Origin: Patescibacteria group bacterium
GTDB lineage: Bacteria > Patescibacteriota > Minisyncoccia > Phycocordibacterales > JBHPGB01
Assembly: GCA_042571085.1 (NCBI GenBank)
Contig: JBHPGB010000002.1
Coordinates: 6,796 to 70,795 of the forward strand
Reading direction: 5' to 3'
DNA: 64,000 bases
Under the pieces are notes generated by a model. The model saw only the letters and a list, made by a program, of their open reading frames with translations. It did no database searches and was not told the DNA's origin. This document shows positions 12,623 through 62,080 of the stretch, piece by piece. Both the position numbers and the translations under genes were made by a program. Position 1 is the stretch's first letter. Every line of letters begins with the position of its first letter.

Positions 12623-15346
12623 TTATATTTTAGACATTGATTTTAGAAAAATACTAAAATCGCTAATATTAATTATACCATTATTATCAAAATCAAGTGC
12701 ATTACGCAGTGGATTATTTTCGTCTCCCCATCTAAAAAGAAAGATACTCCAATCTGTAATATCAATTGCATCATCATCGTTCAAATCTGTATTTGCTGAT
12801 ACTTGTCCAGAAACTTTAAAAGTTATCGGATATGAATACGTACTTGTTATTTCGTTCCAAGTTTGTCTGACTTTTGCAAAATAAATACCCTCTTCAATTT
12901 CGGATGCGGGAATTTCAAATAAATATGAACCATCTGAACCAGCATCTGTTTCAAACTTATAAGTCCCATCCAAACTAAGCTCCACAACACTATTTGCAGC
13001 CGTATGACCAAACACAATCAAGTTTTCACTGAGATTTAAGTATTCCTTTTCAATACTTATTGTTGGTGACATGAGAATATTTTCAACAACAAGACTTCGC
13101 TCTGAATTAAAATCAACCCTGAAAGACATTATTCCGGTTTCGTGCTCATCTTTATCTACTGCTTTTAAAGTAATGAAATATTTACCTGTCAGAAGTGCCG
13201 TATAATCGATATAAAATTCTCCATTTTCTGTAATCCTATTTATGGCAATGGGGATATTTTGAAAAGAAGGATTGACATCATTTACCATTGAAACTAAAAT
13301 TTGGCTTCTAGGAAAAGCTTGCCCGGAAAATCTAATTTTTGTTGCAGCAGATCCGCCGCCGCCTTCTAGTACGGTTATAGATGGTCCTTCTAGTGTTGTT
13401 TCATTTGTAACATTGGAGAGTGCTGACTCATTAGGTGCCTCATCTGAAGTTTTCATTGCAAAATAATATGTCGTACCTGAATTCAAACTAGAAACGGTCA
13501 TTGATTCGCCAGTACCTGCAATAGACGGAGTCGGTTCTCCTGTGGCCTGTGTCGCACTACCCCAATTACCATCATTAATAGTTGCTGTGGAATATCTCAC
13601 GTCATATGTTGTCGCAGTGCCACTAGATCCATCGTCTCCTGGAGCAGTCCAAGACAAATCTATCGCGTAACTAGCTGGGTTAGAAGCAGCAAGATCGGAA
13701 ACAGCTGCTGGTGGTGTGGAATCTCCAGATGAGGTTGTGGTATCACTCGCTACATTTGAAAGCCCTGACTCATTGGGAACTTCATCAGAAGTCTTCATTG
13801 CAAAATAATATGTTGTGCCAGCGCTCAGACCTGTGACAGTCATTGATTCGGCTGTACTTGCAACAGACGGTGATGGTTCATCCGGAACTACAGGTGTAGC
13901 GGAAGCCCAGTTGCCATCATTAATAGTTGCTGTGGAATATCTAATATCATATGTAGTCGCTGTGCCACTAGATCCATCGTCTCCTGGAGCAGTCCAATCT
14001 AAATCAATAGTAGTATCTGTTGGAGATGATGCTGCTAAATCTGAAGTGGTTGATGGTGGAGTTGAATCTCCAGACACCCCTGTTGCAGCACTCGTAACAT
14101 TAGAAAGTCCGGATTCATTTGGTACTTCATCTGAGGTCTTCATTGCAAAGTAGTACGTAGTATCTGCACTTAGTCCAGTAACTGTCATTGATTCAGCAGT
14201 ACTAGCAACGGATGGTGATGGCTCATCTGGAACAACAGGAGTTGCTGAGGCCCAGTTGCCGTCGTTGATAGTTGCGGTTGAGTATCTAATATCATAAGTA
14301 GTGGCAGTACCTGTACTTCCATCATCTCCAGGGGCTGTCCAATCAAGATCTATAGTAGAAGTAGTCGGGCCAGAAGCTGTAAGATCAGAAGTGGTTGCCG
14401 GTGGAGTTGAATCACCAGCAGGACTTGTTGCAGCACTCGTCACATTAGAAAGCGCAGACTCGTTTGGAACCTCATCTGATGTTTTCATTGCAAAATAGTA
14501 TGTTGTGCCAGCACTCAGACCTGTGACAGTCATTGATTCGGCTGTACTTGCAACAGACGGTGATGGTTCATCCGGAACTACAGGAGTTGCTGAGGCCCAG
14601 TTGCCGTCGTTGATAGTTGCGGTTGAGTATCTAATATCATAAGTAGTGGCAGTACCTGTACTTCCATCATCTCCAGGGGCTGTCCAGTCTAGATCTATAG
14701 TCGTGCTTGTTGGACCAGAAGCAGTCAGATCAGAGGTTGTTGCTGGTGGAGTCGAGTCTGCCGGGGTGTAGGTGATAACTGTTTTTAATTGAGAAATCCT
14801 CACATCCTTACCTGCGCTTGTGTCAATAATACCAATCTCTATATCACTCCCACTTGCTTTAGTATGACTCACTGAAAAAGACTGCGTTGCTTCTGCATAA
14901 CTATTCCCTGTTGTAAGATCTGCTCCAGAACTTGTACAGGCACCATCAAAACAATAACGAGTCTGAAATGTACCACCATTTGAACCCTCTTTAAAATAAC
15001 AAGCAGTAACATCTATATTAGTAATGGATGCACCATCTGGAATACCTGATTCATCAATATCAAACGTTTGACTCACGTCAACACCGTTACTATATATGTA
15101 TGAAATATCTCCATCCGAATTAGCACATTCAGCGCCAGTGGTTTCATCAACTTCCAAATAACAATCAGCGGCATTACATGCTGTAGCACCGGTATTTAAC
15201 CAACTTGCACTGTCTTCTCCACCATCAGCGGACGGCATCAAAGAAGAGGTAACGTCTGCAGACACACTAACAACCATTATTGCGATCCAAGCAATAATAA
15301 AAGCGCCTAAAAAAATGGAGAATTTTTTGATTTCAAATTTAATCAT
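12623..15346 (-). CDS. large surface protein with 4 tandem fibronectin type III-like repeats and a C-terminal type-I dockerin module
   Basis: N-terminal signal/TM. Four roughly 115-aa near-identical repeats (TPPATTSDL...TTYYFAMKTSDEVPNES). C-terminal duplicated Ca-binding dockerin repeats DLNDDDAIDITDWSIFL and DFDNNGIINISDFSIFL. Confidence 0.7.
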   Translation of the reverse strand: MIKFEIKKFSIFLGAFIIAWIAIMVVSVSADVTSSLMPSADGGEDSASWLNTGATACNAADCYLEVDETTGAECANSDGDISYIYSNGVDVSQTFDIDESGIPDGASITNIDVTACYFKEGSNGGTFQTRYCFDGACTSSGADLTTGNSYAEATQSFSVSHTKASGSDIEIGIIDTSAGKDVRISQLKTVITYTPADSTPPATTSDLTASGPTSTTIDLDWTAPGDDGSTGTATTYDIRYSTATINDGNWASATPVVPDEPSPSVASTAESMTVTGLSAGTTYYFAMKTSDEVPNESALSNVTSAATSPAGDSTPPATTSDLTASGPTTSTIDLDWTAPGDDGSTGTATTYDIRYSTATINDGNWASATPVVPDEPSPSVASTAESMTVTGLSADTTYYFAMKTSDEVPNESGLSNVTSAATGVSGDSTPPSTTSDLAASSPTDTTIDLDWTAPGDDGSSGTATTYDIRYSTATINDGNWASATPVVPDEPSPSVASTAESMTVTGLSAGTTYYFAMKTSDEVPNESGLSNVASDTTTSSGDSTPPAAVSDLAASNPASYAIDLSWTAPGDDGSSGTATTYDVRYSTATINDGNWGSATQATGEPTPSIAGTGESMTVSSLNSGTTYYFAMKTSDEAPNESALSNVTNETTLEGPSITVLEGGGGSAATKIRFSGQAFPRSQILVSMVNDVNPSFQNIPIAINRITENGEFYIDYTALLTGKYFITLKAVDKDEHETGIMSFRVDFNSERSLVVENILMSPTISIEKEYLNLSENLIVFGHTAANSVVELSLDGTYKFETDAGSDGSYLFEIPASEIEEGIYFAKVRQTWNEITSTYSYPITFKVSGQVSANTDLNDDDAIDITDWSIFLFRWGDENNPLRNALDFDNNGIINISDFSIFLKSMSKI
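13390..14765. repeat. four tandem direct repeats of about 345 bp (FN3-repeat coding units)
   Basis: Repeat anchors TTCATTGCAAA(A/G)TA at about 13452, 13794, 14140 and 14485 (spacing 341-346 bp). Units 1-3 are nearly identical at nucleotide level. Confidence 0.8.
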
Positions 15347-40742: not shown

Positions 40743-43454
40743 CTACACTGTTGTGGTTTTTCTTTTTGCTTTTGTAATCTTTCTTACTGTCTTTTTCTTT
40801 GTGCCCGCATTGCCACTTTTCTCTGCAGTGACAACAATTTCACCTGCTTTCATATCTACCGAAACCTTACCACCATCCACTACTCCGCGCGCAACCATCA
40901 TATTTGCGACCGCTGTGAGAATTTTATCTTGGATAAGACGCTTGAGTGGTCGTGCCCCATATTGAGGATTGTATCCTTCTTTACCAAGATAGGTAAGCGC
41001 TTTATCTGAAACAGTAAGTTTAATCCCCTTTTCTGCCAATCTTTTTGTAACAATATCAATTTGCACATCTACAATATTTCGTATTGCTTCTGGAGAAAGG
41101 ATGTCAAACACAACAATTTCATCCAATCGATTCAAAAATTCTGGGCGGAAATGATCACGCAAGCTTCCCAACACCTTATCTTTCGCATCGCTGTAATCCT
41201 CTTCGGCATCCTTGTTTGAAAATCCAATTGATTCCATTTTGTCTATATATTCTGCGCCGATGTTTGAAGTAAGAACGATAATAGTATTTTTGAAATTAAT
41301 TTTTCGGCCTTTTGCATCTGTAAGCTGACCTTCATCAAGCACTTGTAGAAGTACGTTGAACACCTCAGGGTGTGCCTTTTCAACTTCATCAAAAAGAATT
41401 ACTGAATATGGACGATGTCGTACCGCTTCTGTTAGTTGCCCTGCTTCTTCGTGCCCCACATAGCCCGGAGGTGAGCCCATAAGCTTTGAAATTGAGTGTG
41501 ATTCCATATATTCGCTCATATCCACACGCACAAGCGCTTTGTCGTCATCAAACATAAACTTGGCAAGGGTTTTGGTAAGCTCTGTCTTTCCAACCCCTGT
41601 TGGACCTAAGAATATAAATGATCCGATTGGACGATTTGGGTCTGAAATACCCACCCGTGAGCGCTTCACGGCATCTGCAACCTTTCTCACTGCTTCACTT
41701 TGTCCAATTACTCTTTCCTCCAAAACCTCTTCCATGCGCGCTAATTTTTCTGCTTCTTCTTCAAGCATGCGTGATGTTGGTACACCAGTCCATCGGGCCA
41801 CCACTTCTGCAATATCTTCCTCAGTAATTTCCTCTTTCAATATTCTGCGTGTTTTCTGTAATTTCTTTAATTTTGCAACTTTAATTTTCAGTTCCTTTTC
41901 TAGAACCGGAATTTTTCCGTATCGAATTTCTGCAGCAGTTCCGAGGTCTGCATGTATTTCTGCATTCTCTGCTTCAATACGAAATGTTTCCAATTCTTTC
42001 TTTATTGTTTTAATGCTTGTGTGTAATTCTTTTTCATTTTTCCATTTAAGCTCAAGCTCGCGTGTTTTCTCGCGCAAGTTTGCAATCTCCTTATCAATTA
42101 CCCGTACACGAGCACGCGCTTTTTTTGCGACAGCGGTTTCCCCCTCTTTTACTTCTTTTTTAAGTGCCTCTTTCTCAACATCTAGTCGCATAATCGAACG
42201 ATGCGTAGCTTCGAGTATCACCGGCTTATTTTCAAGTGTCATACGAAGAGCTGCTGCGGCCTCATCAATAAGATCGACTGATTTGTCCGGCAAAAATCGG
42301 CTTGTGATATATCTACTTGAAAGCTCCACGGAAGCAATAATCGCATCATCAGTAATACGCACGCCGTGATAAAGCTCATATTTTTCTTTAAGCCCGCGCA
42401 TAATTGCTTTTGCATCTTCTAAAGATGGTTCATCTACATAGATGGACTGGAAGCGTCGTGCAAGTGCCGCGTCCTTCTCAATATATTTTTGGTATTCTTT
42501 GATTGTTGTTGCACCAATTGCACGTAGCTCACCACGCGCCAGTGCAGGCTTTAACATGTTTGATGCATCCATTGATCCTTCTGCAGATCCAGCACCAACA
42601 ATAGTATGAATCTCATCTATAAAGAGGACAATCTTCCCTTCTGATTTTTCAACTTCCTTAATTACATTCTTTAGACGCTCTTCAAACTCACCGCGAAATT
42701 TTGTTCCAGCAACAAGAAGTCCTAGATCGAGACTCACCAATTCTTTATCTTTTAAAGAATCAGGAACCTCTCCTTTTGCAATACGCACAGCGAGCCCTTC
42801 TGCAATCGCTGTTTTTCCAACCCCTGGTTCACCAATTAGCATTGGATTATTTTTTGTACGACGAGAAAGTATTTCCATCACACGACGAATTTCATTATCA
42901 CGCCCAATAACAGGGTCTAGCTTATCTTCGGAAGCGAGTTTTGTTAGGTTGCGAGTATATTTTGCAAGAGTGCGGTATTTTTTTTGCCCTGTATCAATAT
43001 CAGTAATATTTGAACTACGTAACTCTTCTAGAATTTTTTCTGCACTATCTCTTTCAACCTTAAAACGAGCCAGTAATTCTTTTGCTGGGTTAGCTGACCC
43101 AAGCATAGAAAGGAATAGGTGCTCCGTAGAAACAAACTCGTCTTTCAATTTCTGTGTCACTTGCATTGATTCTTCTAAAATACGAGCAAGTTCGGGTGTA
43201 AGATAAATCTGGTATGAAGGAGAAACTGTGTTTGAGCTTTCGCCCTCAATGACTTCTAGAGCTGTATCAATAAGTAGTGGTGTATCTACTTCCATTCTGT
43301 CTAACATAGAAATAACCATTGATTCTTCTTGGAGTAACATTGCTGTAAGCAAATGCACTGGATTCACATGATTTTGACCACGTTCAATAGCGAGCTCGTG
43401 GGCCCGCTTAATTGCTTCTTTTGCTTTTGTTGTAAATGAATTTAGTGGTGGCAT
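40743..43454 (-). CDS. clpB: AAA+ chaperone ClpB (two NBDs with coiled-coil middle domain)
   Basis: Clp N-domain repeats, two Walker A/B modules ([16 protein letters not shown]), long M-domain coiled coil. Confidence 0.85.
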
Positions 43455-43712
43455 CGTTTACTTTTAAAGAGTAAGTAAGGTTATTTTATAAACTCACTTA
43501 CTCCTATTTAATTATCTTTAATAAGTGCAGTATAAAACACATCCCCTTATTTTTCAAGGCAAAATTAAAACCCCCGCAGTGTTAGTGCGGGGGGTGTTGA
43601 TGCGAAGTCATAGACTCCTTGTAGATATCATCCGGCGAAATCATTTCACCTTCAATTGATTATCTCTTTAAAGAACAAATTCCTTTTCGCTCTAGCCGGT
43701 GATCGATTGTGA

Positions 43713-43847
43713 TCAGGCGCAGGTCGCGGACGGTGCGGGCAGGCCGATGGTGCCGGTGTCGCGGGTCAGGCCGATGGCAGTGGTCAGGTTGGCGGTTGCA
43801 ATATTGGCATCAATACAGGTCTTGGTCAAACGGTGTCGATGGTGCAT
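43713..43847 (-). CDS. candidate small protein A (44 aa, MHHRHRLTKTCIDANIATANLTTAIGLTRDTGTIGLPAPSATCA) in a roughly 60%-GC island
   Basis: Strong SD AAGGAGAG 7 nt upstream of ATG. Near-consensus promoter TTGACA-N16-TACACT. Terminator AAAACCCCCGCAGTGTTAGTGCGGGGGGT downstream. In-frame paralogue at 61271-61357. Confidence 0.4.
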   Translation of the reverse strand: MHHRHRLTKTCIDANIATANLTTAIGLTRDTGTIGLPAPSATCA

Positions 43848-43913
43848 CGTGTCTCTCCTTACTGGCCGTTTTGGCGAAGTGGGTCAGCAACGCTTTTGCT
43901 AACCTCCCTCGTA

Positions 43914-43940
43914 GTGTACACGCCACACAAAATTTGTCAA
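43914..43940 (-). promoter_or_regulatory. sigma-70-type promoter of locus A (TTGACA -35, TACACT -10)
   Basis: Minus strand reads TTGACAAATTTTGTGTGGCGTGTACACT. Confidence 0.5.
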
Positions 43941-44031
43941 GCCTTTTCTTCAACTAACAAAACTTACTCTCCTACACACTAAAAAAATTGCTTAAAATAT
44001 AAATATTTTAAGCAATTTTCATTTTTTATAA

Positions 44032-45653: not shown

Positions 45654-46052
45654 TTACAAAAATTCTTTTACTAAATTTCTAACCTTTTCAAACTCTTCTT
45701 CAGAAAAGGTACGGACCTTTCTCAAAAGCCTTTTACTGCTTATTGTTCTAATTTGAGACAATATAATTGAATATTTTTCTCCATTATATTCAAATTGGTA
45801 ATAATACTTCCCTGTTTTGTTTTTGCTCGTAAGTGGCAATATCCATAACATATCTTTATTAAACTTTTTCAAAATAAGTATAGGTCTTTCAAACTTTTCA
45901 TTCTTTCCGTCTTGCTCATACCCAATATTAGCACCTAGACTTGCCCACCAGATTTCTCGTTCCTTAAAATATGGTAATTCCTCTTCGGAAATATAAATTC
46001 TAACTTTTAACTTCGTCCATTCTACGAACTTTAATAATATTTCCCTATTCAT
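45654..46052 (-). CDS. mazF: PemK/MazF-family endoribonuclease toxin homologue; start overlaps the iscS stop (ATGA)
   Basis: MazF-like blocks IWWASLGANIGYEQDG and ERPILILKKFNKDMLWILPLTS. No antitoxin ORF upstream. Confidence 0.55.
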   Translation of the reverse strand: MNREILLKFVEWTKLKVRIYISEEELPYFKEREIWWASLGANIGYEQDGKNEKFERPILILKKFNKDMLWILPLTSKNKTGKYYYQFEYNGEKYSIILSQIRTISSKRLLRKVRTFSEEEFEKVRNLVKEFL

Positions 46053-60194: not shown

Positions 60195-60818
60195 TTATAG
60201 TGATTTTAGTACTACAATCTCACCTTCTTTACTCTCCACATCTTTCTTTTTTATCGTAAGTTTGTCTACAGCCTTAAGCGATTCTGATCCGGCTTCTTTC
60301 AAAAACTGTTTCAAAGATTTGTCGTCATAATCCATTGGAATAATGATACTTGGTCCAAGTTTGGTAGATAGCTTGTGAGCCTCTTCTGGTGCAAGTACCT
60401 CACCACCCCCTGTTGGTACAAAAAGAATATCAATACCGTCAAGACCTTCTTTAATTTCATTTGAAAGTTCTGGGGTATTCAATACACCAAGAAATGCAAT
60501 ATTTATATTATCAATCAAAATTGAATAGATGGTATTTATTTTATTTTCCTTTTCGTAAGAAGATTCTGCTCCAAAACCTTTTACAAAAATACCACTCCTT
60601 TCATATTCACCTGGTCCTGTGATCGCAAACGGAACCTTGTCTCCGTATTTCATATCCTCAACACCATTGAAATCAACATGATTAAGAGAAGAGACAGCAA
60701 TATCCGCGCCGAATTTCGCGGCTTTAATTTTTGATTTTTTTCCGACAGGATTAATTGCGACCGTTGTATCGCCTTGTTGGATTTTGAAAAATTGTTTTCC
60801 GTAGTAAGTTATTATCAT
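60195..60818 (-). CDS. MBL-fold metallo-hydrolase
   Basis: Metallo-beta-lactamase fold length and His/Asp metal-ligand blocks (SSLNHVDFNG, VPTGGG, IPMDYDD). Confidence 0.65.
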   Translation of the reverse strand: MIITYYGKQFFKIQQGDTTVAINPVGKKSKIKAAKFGADIAVSSLNHVDFNGVEDMKYGDKVPFAITGPGEYERSGIFVKGFGAESSYEKENKINTIYSILIDNINIAFLGVLNTPELSNEIKEGLDGIDILFVPTGGGEVLAPEEAHKLSTKLGPSIIIPMDYDDKSLKQFLKEAGSESLKAVDKLTIKKKDVESKEGEIVVLKSL

Positions 60819-60990
60819 GGGCTACAGTATATCGTATTTTGTATTCTGTATCCAGTATTAAAAATGTTTATAAATGGCTTGATAAATTTTTAACTAATGT
60901 TATATTTGAATTAGAAATTAATCAGTAAAAAGAATTGTGGTGTACACTGGTGTATACCATACATACCTCCGGATATTTTATTCGGAGAAG

Positions 60991-61057
60991 AAAGGAGGTG
61001 ATCCGAGCCTTGGGGAGCAATGCAAAAACATTGACTCCTTGTATCTACGACTTCACC
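60991..61057 (-). ncRNA. isolated 16S-rRNA 3'-terminus-like segment (h44 3' strand + divergent h45 + anti-Shine-Dalgarno), with no 16S body
   Basis: Minus strand reads GGGTGAAGTCGTAGATACAAGGAGTCAATGTTTTTGCATTGCTCCCCAAGGCTCGGATCACCTCCTTTCT. Compare canonical GGGGTGAAGTCGTAACAAGG...GGATCACCTCCTT. Confidence 0.5.
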
Positions 61058-61135
61058 CTTCCCTTCAACCCTGGGTGCACCTCTTTGAGGTGCACCCATA
61101 GCTTTTTATATAAAATAAACAAGTAGGTGTTGGGG

Positions 61136-61163
61136 TTGACAAATCCTGTGGGTATGCTAAGAT
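61136..61163 (+). promoter_or_regulatory. sigma-70-type promoter of locus B (TTGACA-N16-TAAGAT)
   Basis: TTGACAAATCCTGTGGGTATGCTAAGAT. Confidence 0.5.
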
Positions 61164-61270
61164 ATCCACAGGTTCAGTTAGCGCGAGTAACATTGCTGCT
61201 GACCTAGCGAAGGTTCTGTGGCGACTGCCACAGCCTATATTGCCCTCTAGCCATACAAGGAACCAAGCCT

Positions 61271-61357
61271 ATGATTGTTCTCAATTTCAGTGCCATCGGC
61301 ACTTATCTTGATAATTCTGACACCATCCTGGCCACCGGCATCGTTGCCATCGCCTGA
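61271..61357 (+). CDS. candidate small protein B (28 aa, MIVLNFSAIGTYLDNSDTILATGIVAIA), in-frame paralogue of the locus-A peptide
   Basis: AAGGAA 12 nt upstream. Shares the in-frame blocks GCC ATC GGC, GAC ACC ... ATC ... CTG and terminal GCC TGA with the ORF at 43713-43847. 5'UTRs also homologous (GTTAGC...TTGCTGACC). Confidence 0.3.
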   Translation: MIVLNFSAIGTYLDNSDTILATGIVAIA

Positions 61358-61732
61358 TTGTCTGCCACCGGCGTAGCCCCTAAAGCAGGGCTCTCAAAGA
61401 GCAGTAGCCGTCTGGAAAACAGCTGAACGAAACGCTTGTTTTCCAGCCGGCTGGCCGCAAACCGCCAAATAACCCAAAACAATGCACGGAGGTGCACATG
61501 GGGCTATCGTATTGTACCTAATGGCGCAATGGATTGTGCCTGAACATCTGGTGTTCTACCAATAAAGGATTCGGTAGATGGTGTTCCTCATCAAGCAAAA
61601 GGGGTTTTCTCTGTCACACTAATAAAGCGCCCGTTCGGTGCTTCGCATCAAGATTGAAAGTCACTTGTTCTTCCGAGAATAAAACTTCAAAACTTAAGCA
61701 AATGCAATTTTTACGACAGTGAAAATCTAGCA

Positions 61733-61821
61733 GGACCCGCAGACGTCAAAAACGTCCCGGGTCCTTTTATTTTTTACATGGCTGGCGAGCGAAGCTCGCC
61801 AGCCATTTTTGAACTTTTGAT
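61733..61821 (+). terminator. two consecutive rho-independent terminators ending the locus-B transcript
   Basis: GGACCCGCAGACGTCAAAAACGTCCCGGGTCC followed by a T-run. GGCTGGCGAGCGAAGCTCGCCAGCC followed by TTTTTG. Confidence 0.65.
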
Positions 61822-62080
61822 TTGATGTTTTGGATTTAATATTGTATACTCTCTCCATTAACAGCGGGATTTTAAGATAACACTTTGTCGTCCACAAAAG
61901 GCAGTTTGACAAAGACTCTTGAGATTATTAACTTATCCGCATAAATTAAGCGGATTTTTTTGTGAAAATAAATGGAGTGGGTATTTGAACATACCCGCCA
62001 AATTTTTCTCTCGACAAACTCGAGAAAACTTAGGCGGGTAATATTTTTCTAAACTCACTTCGTTCATTAAGAAAAATATT

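Follow-up and report, generated by a model that had tools for sequence, protein, structure and literature searches.

Locus A is a GC-rich island on the minus strand just upstream of clpB, in a 64,000-nucleotide stretch of contig JBHPGB010000002.1 (assembly GCA_042571085.1, from a Patescibacteria group bacterium) that is referred to here as the window. It is read here, tentatively, as a functional stand-alone small gene whose open reading frame (ORF) is probably translated, and as a diverged extra copy within a lineage-restricted, fast-evolving family. Its transcript, about 340 nt long, would be made from a sigma-70-type promoter and open with a stabilising 5′ stem-loop. The transcript would carry an ORF of 44 codons, led by a Shine-Dalgarno (SD) sequence and probably translated, and would stop at a strong intrinsic terminator ahead of a separate clpB promoter. 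The family would be small, fast-evolving and limited to this Paceibacteria lineage. Locus B, which lies just upstream of rpsA, would be its conserved member, and A would be a further, strongly diverged copy that was inserted between a protease gene and clpB or else retained here alone.

Across the whole window, GC peaks at 0.605 in the interval 43688-43887; the 200-nt segments of the window have a mean GC of 0.377 with a standard deviation of 0.052. The second-highest value, 0.565, belongs to locus B. The GC content is 0.59 at 43700-43899 and 0.33-0.39 in the flanks, and the core of about 0.60 GC (43690-43905) holds four same-strand copies of the motif CAYCGGC (43776-43770, 43758-43752, 43749-43743 and 43701-43695), the last of them 3′ of the stop codon. 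All elements of the locus are on the minus strand. The promoter, of the sigma-70 type, consists of TTGACA (43940-43935), a 16-nt spacer and TACACT (43918-43913), and the −35 context TTGACAAATnnTGTG is common to locus B. A 5′-terminal hairpin of 9 bp, GGUUAGCAA-AAGCG-UUGCUGACC (GGTTAGCAA/TTGCTGACC in the DNA), spans 43904-43882, and its base, GUUAGC/GCUGAC, is also present in B and the B orthologues. The SD-like sequence AAGGAGAG (43860-43853) stands 5 nt before the ATG at 43847, from which the 44 codons of the ORF, MHHRHRLTKTCIDANIATANLTTAIGLTRDTGTIGLPAPSATCA, run to a TGA stop codon (43847-43713); the product is listed at NCBI as hypothetical protein ACFLY0_02090. Beyond the AT-rich 3′ tail (43600-43712) lies the intrinsic terminator (43561-43593), in which CCCCCGCACTAACACTGCGGGGG is followed by TTTTAATTTT and the stem, at 43593-43571, has eight pairs, seven of them G-C. 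The first-pass annotation had described an island of about 60% GC with this promoter, leader hairpin, translation and G/C-rich terminator, and an independent small transcription unit with its own promoter, SD sequence, ORF and terminator is indeed found on the minus strand. One of its measurements needs correction: the leader is about 59 nt long, not 70 nt.

Promoter-like and terminator-like matches are no more numerous in the A region than in shuffled sequences, so that the non-random part is the ordered arrangement of signals around the ORF. The codons of the ORF are unlike those of host genes, as had been remarked at first pass. GC at third codon positions is 0.75 compared with 0.30 in the host, and the mean log relative synonymous codon usage is −0.45 compared with +0.08 to +0.19. 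Within the locus only the ORF and the 5′ hairpin are high in GC. The spacer of the promoter and the 3′ tail share the AT-richness of the host, a distribution that argues for local selection rather than a foreign DNA block. We infer that selection on the RNA, in its hairpins and repeated CAYCGGC motifs, accounts for the high local GC, and not foreign origin. Since an identical A sequence is present in a second assembly, GCA_042577165.1, the island is no assembly chimera; the two assemblies are 99.93% identical over 6.8 kb, and their five mismatches all fall within clpB.

Locus A is missing at the syntenic site in the nearest relative. The nearest genome with the same gene order, aminotransferase-superoxide dismutase (SOD)-protease-clpB-uracil-DNA glycosylase (UDG), is GCA_042568055.1, in which the protease is 69% identical. 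The protease-clpB spacer is 63 nt long there and 577 nt long here, which implies that A was inserted in this species or lost in the sister species. No related sequence and no comparable upstream island was found by blastn and GC profile at 80 Paceibacteria clpB loci. A constant association with clpB, which the first-pass annotation had proposed to check, is thus not seen: A is not tied to clpB, and no regulatory link between them is evident. Neither terminal inverted repeats bracketing A nor a target-site duplication was found (flank similarity is no better than in shuffles, 310 of 500 of which score at least as high), and a miniature inverted-repeat or insertion-sequence type of mobile element is not supported. 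Searches of phage, plasmid and E. coli collections with blastn gave chance matches or nothing, two pattern scans of IMG/VR gave nothing, and a metagenome pattern scan with three blocks common to A and B gave three matches, all in coding regions of high-GC organisms and attributable to chance. No donor-like sequence for A thus emerged from the metagenome, phage and plasmid searches. The GC anomaly had been ascribed to either selection on RNA structure or recent acquisition; A is an insertion relative to the nearest syntenic genome, but wholesale recent acquisition from a high-GC donor is doubtful in view of the AT-rich spacer and tail and the missing donor.

Locus B (61136-61460, plus strand) has a promoter, TTGACA-16-TAAGAT (61136-61163), two hairpins (61177-61204 and about 61216-61233), the SD-like motif AAGGAA (61257-61262) and an ORF of 28 codons, MIVLNFSAIGTYLDNSDTILATGIVAIA (61271-61357). 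A CACCGGC and hairpins follow the stop codon, and the transcript would continue 3′ through 61447-61837 as far as two terminators. When A (minus) and B (plus) are aligned locally, the colinear alignment scores 66, compared with 34-36 ± 6.5 and a maximum of 63 in 900 shuffles that preserve local composition. The common blocks stand in the same order: TTGACAAATnnTGTG, the base of the 5′ hairpin (GTTAGC...GCTGACC), GCCATCGGC, the stop codon with TGAT...CACCGGC, and a related 3′ tail. The tail of A resembles both the terminal part of this strain's B transcript (61642-61760) and an alternative B 3′ segment found in two other strains, L088 and L089. The motif CAYCGGC occurs 16 times in the window, where 5.1 copies are expected, and seven of the 16 lie in A (four) and B (three), all on the sense strand. 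The clusters span 43695-43776 (minus) and 61294-61372 (plus), and at each locus one copy lies beyond the ORF, 3′ of the stop codon; of the B orthologues, that in L093 keeps two copies and that in L091 none. A is accepted here, with moderate confidence, as a distant relative of B.

The B orthologues provide evidence for translation. The intergenic regions between the gene for a metallo-β-lactamase (MBL)-fold hydrolase and rpsA were recovered through homologues of S1, the rpsA product, in the genomes L091, L092 and L093/L094, in which S1 is 82-88% identical. B orthologues are present in L091, L093 and L094, always between these two genes and with 73-79% nucleotide identity; none was found in L092 or in more distant relatives. 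The alignment keeps the −35 box (CTTGACAAAT), an extended −10 box, hairpins 1 and 2, an aligned AUG and an aligned UGA. At a distance of 7-10 nt from the AUG, every orthologue keeps a motif of the SD type (AAGGAA, GAGGAA or AGAGGA), set among differing flanking bases and in a genome in which such motifs are rare. The frame from AUG to UGA is the only one open across all three. The encoded peptides are MIVLNFSAIGTYLDNSDTILATGIVAIA in the window (28 aa), MIVLNPRAIGTYIDNYSTIMTTQACGQVASA in L093 and L094 (31 aa) and MNWQNPSGAATSIRIVEEHT in L091 (20 aa), and the ORF lengths in the family, with A, are 20, 28, 31 and 44 codons. Insertions and deletions in the alignment are 6, 9 and 39 nt long in the ORF, and 1, 2, 2, 3 and 3 nt long in the untranslated regions (UTRs). 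In each of the four sequences frame 0 has a higher codon log-likelihood than the other two forward frames, and pyrimidines occupy 26 of 28 third positions in B and 33 of 44 in A, versus a fraction of 0.48 in host genes, a purine-any base-pyrimidine (RNY) periodicity. In the N-terminal halves, the window and L093 peptides are identical at 12 of 15 positions, with two synonymous changes. The frame-preserving indels, together with the kept SD-like motif, AUG and stop codon, favour translation over a purely non-coding RNA, and we infer that the transcript of A is made and its ORF translated as well. The plus-strand ORFs at A, dismissed as spurious at first pass, match no family and lack a conserved counterpart at B. 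Antisense coding by one of them, of 82 codons, was rejected: at B the corresponding frame is not open and its translation is unrelated to that at A, and the ORF scores well only because RNY periodicity is strand-symmetric.

Several observations weigh against reading A as a translated member of such a family. The chance of three in-frame indels is about 0.04, with gap placement uncertain, and dN/dS (the ratio of nonsynonymous to synonymous change), at 0.72, 0.54 and 0.45, is based on tiny counts and not distinguishable from 1. The codon-level check thus yields weak amino-acid constraint beside the preserved frame and signals, and the L091 peptide is almost unrelated. The per-codon log-likelihood of the A ORF, −0.15, is below the host 5th percentile of 0.17. 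The 5′ hairpins contain no double-sided compensatory change. The paralogy of A and B, claimed at first pass, is borne out only in part: the colinear similarity is weak, a B nhmmer profile reaches A only at E = 4.6 and 6.1, in two colinear same-strand matches, a covariance model of the B 5′ UTR does not recover A, and BLASTP finds no similarity between the A and B peptides. The A peptide found only itself among 5.8 billion clusters (word-index search) and among 1.84 billion representatives (exhaustive HMMER search), and it has no match in Pfam or NCBIfam. Identity between the family peptides and that of A is about 16-37%.

Among the alternatives, the most probable is that A specifies a structured non-coding small RNA (sRNA), an account we consider less likely than the reading above. 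The SD-like motif and the ORF would then be incidental: GC-rich sequence has few stop codons, and AAGGAG could be a functional RNA motif and no ribosome-binding site, for instance one pairing with the 16S 3′ end or with another RNA. The GC enrichment, local as it is, takes in the untranslated 5′ hairpin, one CAYCGGC copy lies beyond the ORF at both loci, and the A peptide is an orphan. Between A and B, conservation at third codon positions equals that at the other two (by hand count), and dN/dS is near 1. The hairpins are conserved: in the two 5′ hairpins of the B family 95% of the alignment cells pair, and the changes are single, wobble-compatible and fit the sense strand alone; a hairpin after the stop codon is present in four of four sequences although the sequences differ. 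The fold of B is better than that of shuffles (z = −3.2), but that of A is only marginally so (z = −1.9), and the hairpins are without double-sided covariation. Nor is there an Rfam match. In Rfam 15 only tRNAs in the window reach the gathering threshold, and scans of A, B and one orthologous region at permissive E-values gave noise only, the best score being 22 bits, against a threshold of 50, for a eukaryotic snoRNA model. It also speaks against an untranslated RNA that frame, AUG, stop codon and SD-like motif are kept across the orthologues with in-frame indels, and that the ORF frame shows the codon-like RNY periodicity.

A translated, structured transcript recalls the dual-function sRNAs SR1/SR1P of Bacillus, SgrS/SgrT of enterobacteria and RNAIII/hld of Staphylococcus. 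Like these, A and B would give stand-alone transcripts of a few hundred nucleotides, each running from a promoter of its own to an intrinsic terminator; the 5′ and 3′ parts are structured, the ORF, of 20-45 codons, is SD-led, and the peptide is poorly conserved while RNA features persist. To these RNAs they have no sequence or Rfam relationship, and they are found only in a few metagenome-assembled genomes of Paceibacteria. An independent promoter and terminator, with translation signals of the ORF kept in relatives, is one mark of a dual-function sRNA and is found here; the other mark of the class would be translation together with a separate base-pairing regulatory activity. The paired 5′ hairpins, the hairpin after the stop codon and the clustered CAYCGGC copies also speak for an RNA-level role beside translation. 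Our guess is that the transcript acts both as RNA and as mRNA, in the manner of a dual-function sRNA, and that translating a short ORF matters more than the exact peptide sequence.

It is rather improbable that A is a non-functional remnant, either a decaying B-like duplicate or a foreign GC-rich fragment kept by chance. The lack of homologues, the atypical codon usage, the absence of A from relatives and the failure of B-derived models to detect it would all suit such a remnant. Nevertheless, the −35 box is perfect and the −10 box good, the SD spacing is optimal, the ORF is intact and the terminator is strong, all of them persisting together, and 60% GC is kept in a genome of 38% GC, where mutation pressure should wear it down. 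The AT-richness of the promoter and the 3′ tail speaks against a foreign block in particular, as does the lack of any donor-like sequence.

Less probable still is that A and B are modules of the type I toxin kind, as had been suggested for A at first pass, in which a potentially harmful peptide is encoded on a structured, translationally controlled mRNA under the control of an sRNA. Such modules are multicopy, strain-variable and inserted in intergenic regions. The two copies here, the presence or absence of A between species, the replacement of the B 3′ end at strain level, the narrow distribution and rapid evolution, and the structured, GC-rich transcripts all fit this description. In their small ORFs on structured mRNAs, their intergenic, multicopy and variable occurrence and their narrow spread, often as database orphans, hok/sok, AapA1/IsoA1, TisB/IstR-1 and Zor/Orz resemble A and B. 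They appear to differ in having a consistently hydrophobic transmembrane peptide, an antisense RNA that can be predicted and a conserved long-distance sequestration of the SD sequence. The B peptide of the window is hydrophobic, with a grand average of hydropathicity (GRAVY) of about 1.2 by hand calculation, but it is interrupted by DNSD, and the L091 peptide is hydrophilic. The A peptide, with a GRAVY of about 0 (also calculated by hand), is not hydrophobic, and its single-sequence AlphaFold model is a helix of low confidence (predicted local distance difference test score, pLDDT, of 66). In the B orthologues RNAalifold proposes a pairing of the SD region with the 3′ strand of the terminator; the partition-function partners of the SD differ in every homologue. 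An antisense promoter is predicted at neither A nor B. The unit directly upstream of B, called U and described below, carries the anti-SD-like ACUCCUUGU, and 11 nt of the A 3′ tail are perfectly complementary to it on inspection of the sequence; the U-B and U-A duplex energies are no better than those of shuffles and so do not support U as an antisense regulator of A or B.

A leader peptide had also been proposed; that A is such a leader or an attenuator for read-through into clpB, and B one for rpsA, is very improbable. Each stands immediately upstream of a co-oriented, highly expressed gene and has a short ORF rich in rare Thr, Ile, Ala and Gly codons followed by a terminator, much as the thr, ilv, his and leu leaders do with their short Thr/Ile/Ala-rich ORFs, and in B the SD region and the 5′ strand of a terminator-like hairpin could compete for one 3′ strand; but unlike in those leaders clpB and rpsA each have their own promoter-like site, 3′ of the A terminator and (conserved) 3′ of the B terminators, respectively, there is no run of a single regulatory codon, the clpB genes of the closest relative and of 80 other Paceibacteria are without such an element, and Rfam leader families give only noise-level matches (E about 6-10) on the opposite strand.

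Other identities were considered and either not supported or rejected. The peptide had been thought possibly bacteriocin-like or secreted; a bacteriocin or a ribosomally synthesised and post-translationally modified peptide precursor has no match in Pfam or NCBIfam, and the neighbours (trypsin-like protease, SOD, MazF, ClpB, tRNA-Tyr and UDG) include no processing or export genes. An rRNA fragment was dismissed on local alignment scores of A and B to both strands of E. coli 16S and 23S rRNA that lie within the shuffle range. Patescibacteria are rich in diversity-generating retroelements; the differences between A and B are not adenine-specific, as those of a template and variable repeat pair of such an element would be, and no reverse transcriptase is present among the annotated neighbours of A.

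Unit U (60879-61110, plus strand), conserved and sRNA-like, combines a terminator of 12 bp (61072-61098) with a promoter-like TTGATA-16-TATATT with TG. Within it, AGAAAGGAGGTGATCC and CTCCTTGTATCTACGACTTCACCC are reverse-complementary to the 3′ end of 16S rRNA. The minus strand of U aligns to E. coli 16S positions 1486-1541, and the perfect complement to the 16S 3′ end is 13-16 nt long. The promoter, the terminator and the core AAGGAGGTGAT are kept in L091 and L092, and the core is more diverged in L093; Rfam detects nothing in U. U might be an antisense RNA against the 3′ end of 16S rRNA; a mimic or remnant of the 16S end is less likely, given these signals. On the other side of B, a different 193-nt segment replaces the 389-nt segment 61447-61837 in the strains L088 (11183-11377) and L089 (3035-3229), which are otherwise 99.8-99.95% identical to the window. 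The break lies between the terminator-like hairpin of B and the rpsA promoter. The version in the window is orthologous to that of L091, and both the alternative version and the terminal part of the window version resemble the 3′ tail of A. Judging by unit U and the replaced 3′ segment of B, the MBL-rpsA spacer may be a small RNA-gene island, and this island, U in particular, may be more interesting than A. Farther 3′, rpsA has a 5′ leader of about 230 nt (61850-62080, plus strand) behind a conserved TTGAT(G/A)-17-TATACT promoter; it contains hairpins, is 75-80% identical in L091, L093 and L094, and may be an S1 autoregulatory leader.

Among the 33 ORFs of at least 200 codons in the window, an SD-like motif precedes the first ATG by no more than 20 nt in three, an approximate count with uncurated start codons; in about a third, a TATACT/TATAAT-like box lies 6-12 nt ahead of the ATG (for example the ATGs at 60818 (−), 44895 (−) and 33094 (+)). 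This pattern suggests that leaderless or near-leaderless mRNAs are widespread in the window. It is a long shot that A, B and U form a lineage-specific RNA module acting on the anti-SD end of 16S rRNA. Strong SD-like motifs occur on few transcripts here, those of A and B among them, and these two also bear repeated CAYCGGC sites; with U they could, in this reading, titrate or sense either an RNA-binding protein or the free 3′ ends of 30S subunits. Were it true, the regulation would be ribosome-directed, similar in spirit to bS21 autoregulation. In Bacteroidota, bS21 is autoregulated in an SD-dependent way.

ClpB and the proteins encoded near it assign the window to an uncultured member of the Patescibacteria (Paceibacteria/Parcubacteria). 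Upstream of A lie the genes for a trypsin-like protease, an Fe/Mn SOD, a MazF-like toxin and a class V aminotransferase. The MazF/PemK-like toxin gene (45654-46052, minus) shares 4 nt with the end of the aminotransferase gene (46049), its own stop codon overlaps the start region of no obvious antitoxin, and an unrelated 125-aa ORF takes its position in the nearest syntenic genome (L085). The clpB gene (40743-43454, minus) encodes the Pfam ClpB domains, and its best matches among GTDB species representatives are 65-70% identical; tRNA-Tyr and the UDG gene follow downstream. A candidate clpB promoter, TTGAAA-17-TATACT (43529-43557, minus), lies 3′ of the A terminator and outside the element. Between this site and the clpB ATG is an inverted repeat, GGAGTAAGTGAG...CTTACTTACTC (43456-43497, minus), which could serve a heat-shock repressor as operator; it is unlike the CIRCE and HAIR consensus sequences.

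Elsewhere in the window, tRNA genes or tRNA-adjacent sequences are partially duplicated with 74-97% identity (35824-35929/36022-36127, 23180-23275/40417-40514, 49885-49921/50033-50069, 50876-50905/51134-51163 and 51250-51276/51454-51480), and these duplications resemble att-site scars of integrative elements. Three to four tandem units of about 345 nt with 73-77% identity and a raised GC content of 0.45-0.48 occupy 13394-14569 and presumably encode a repeat-domain protein.

Patescibacteria have tiny genomes with very little intergenic DNA. To our knowledge almost nothing is known of their small RNAs and small proteins, and a literature search on either gave nothing relevant. As an orphan small gene, A serves chiefly to correct the annotation and to seed a search for the family, and unit U, with its complementarity to the 16S 3′ end, may prove the more interesting lead. 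Since intergenic DNA is so sparse in these episymbionts, a small gene family that is high in GC, duplicated and strain-variable is a reasonable candidate for a regulatory or conflict-related role in them.

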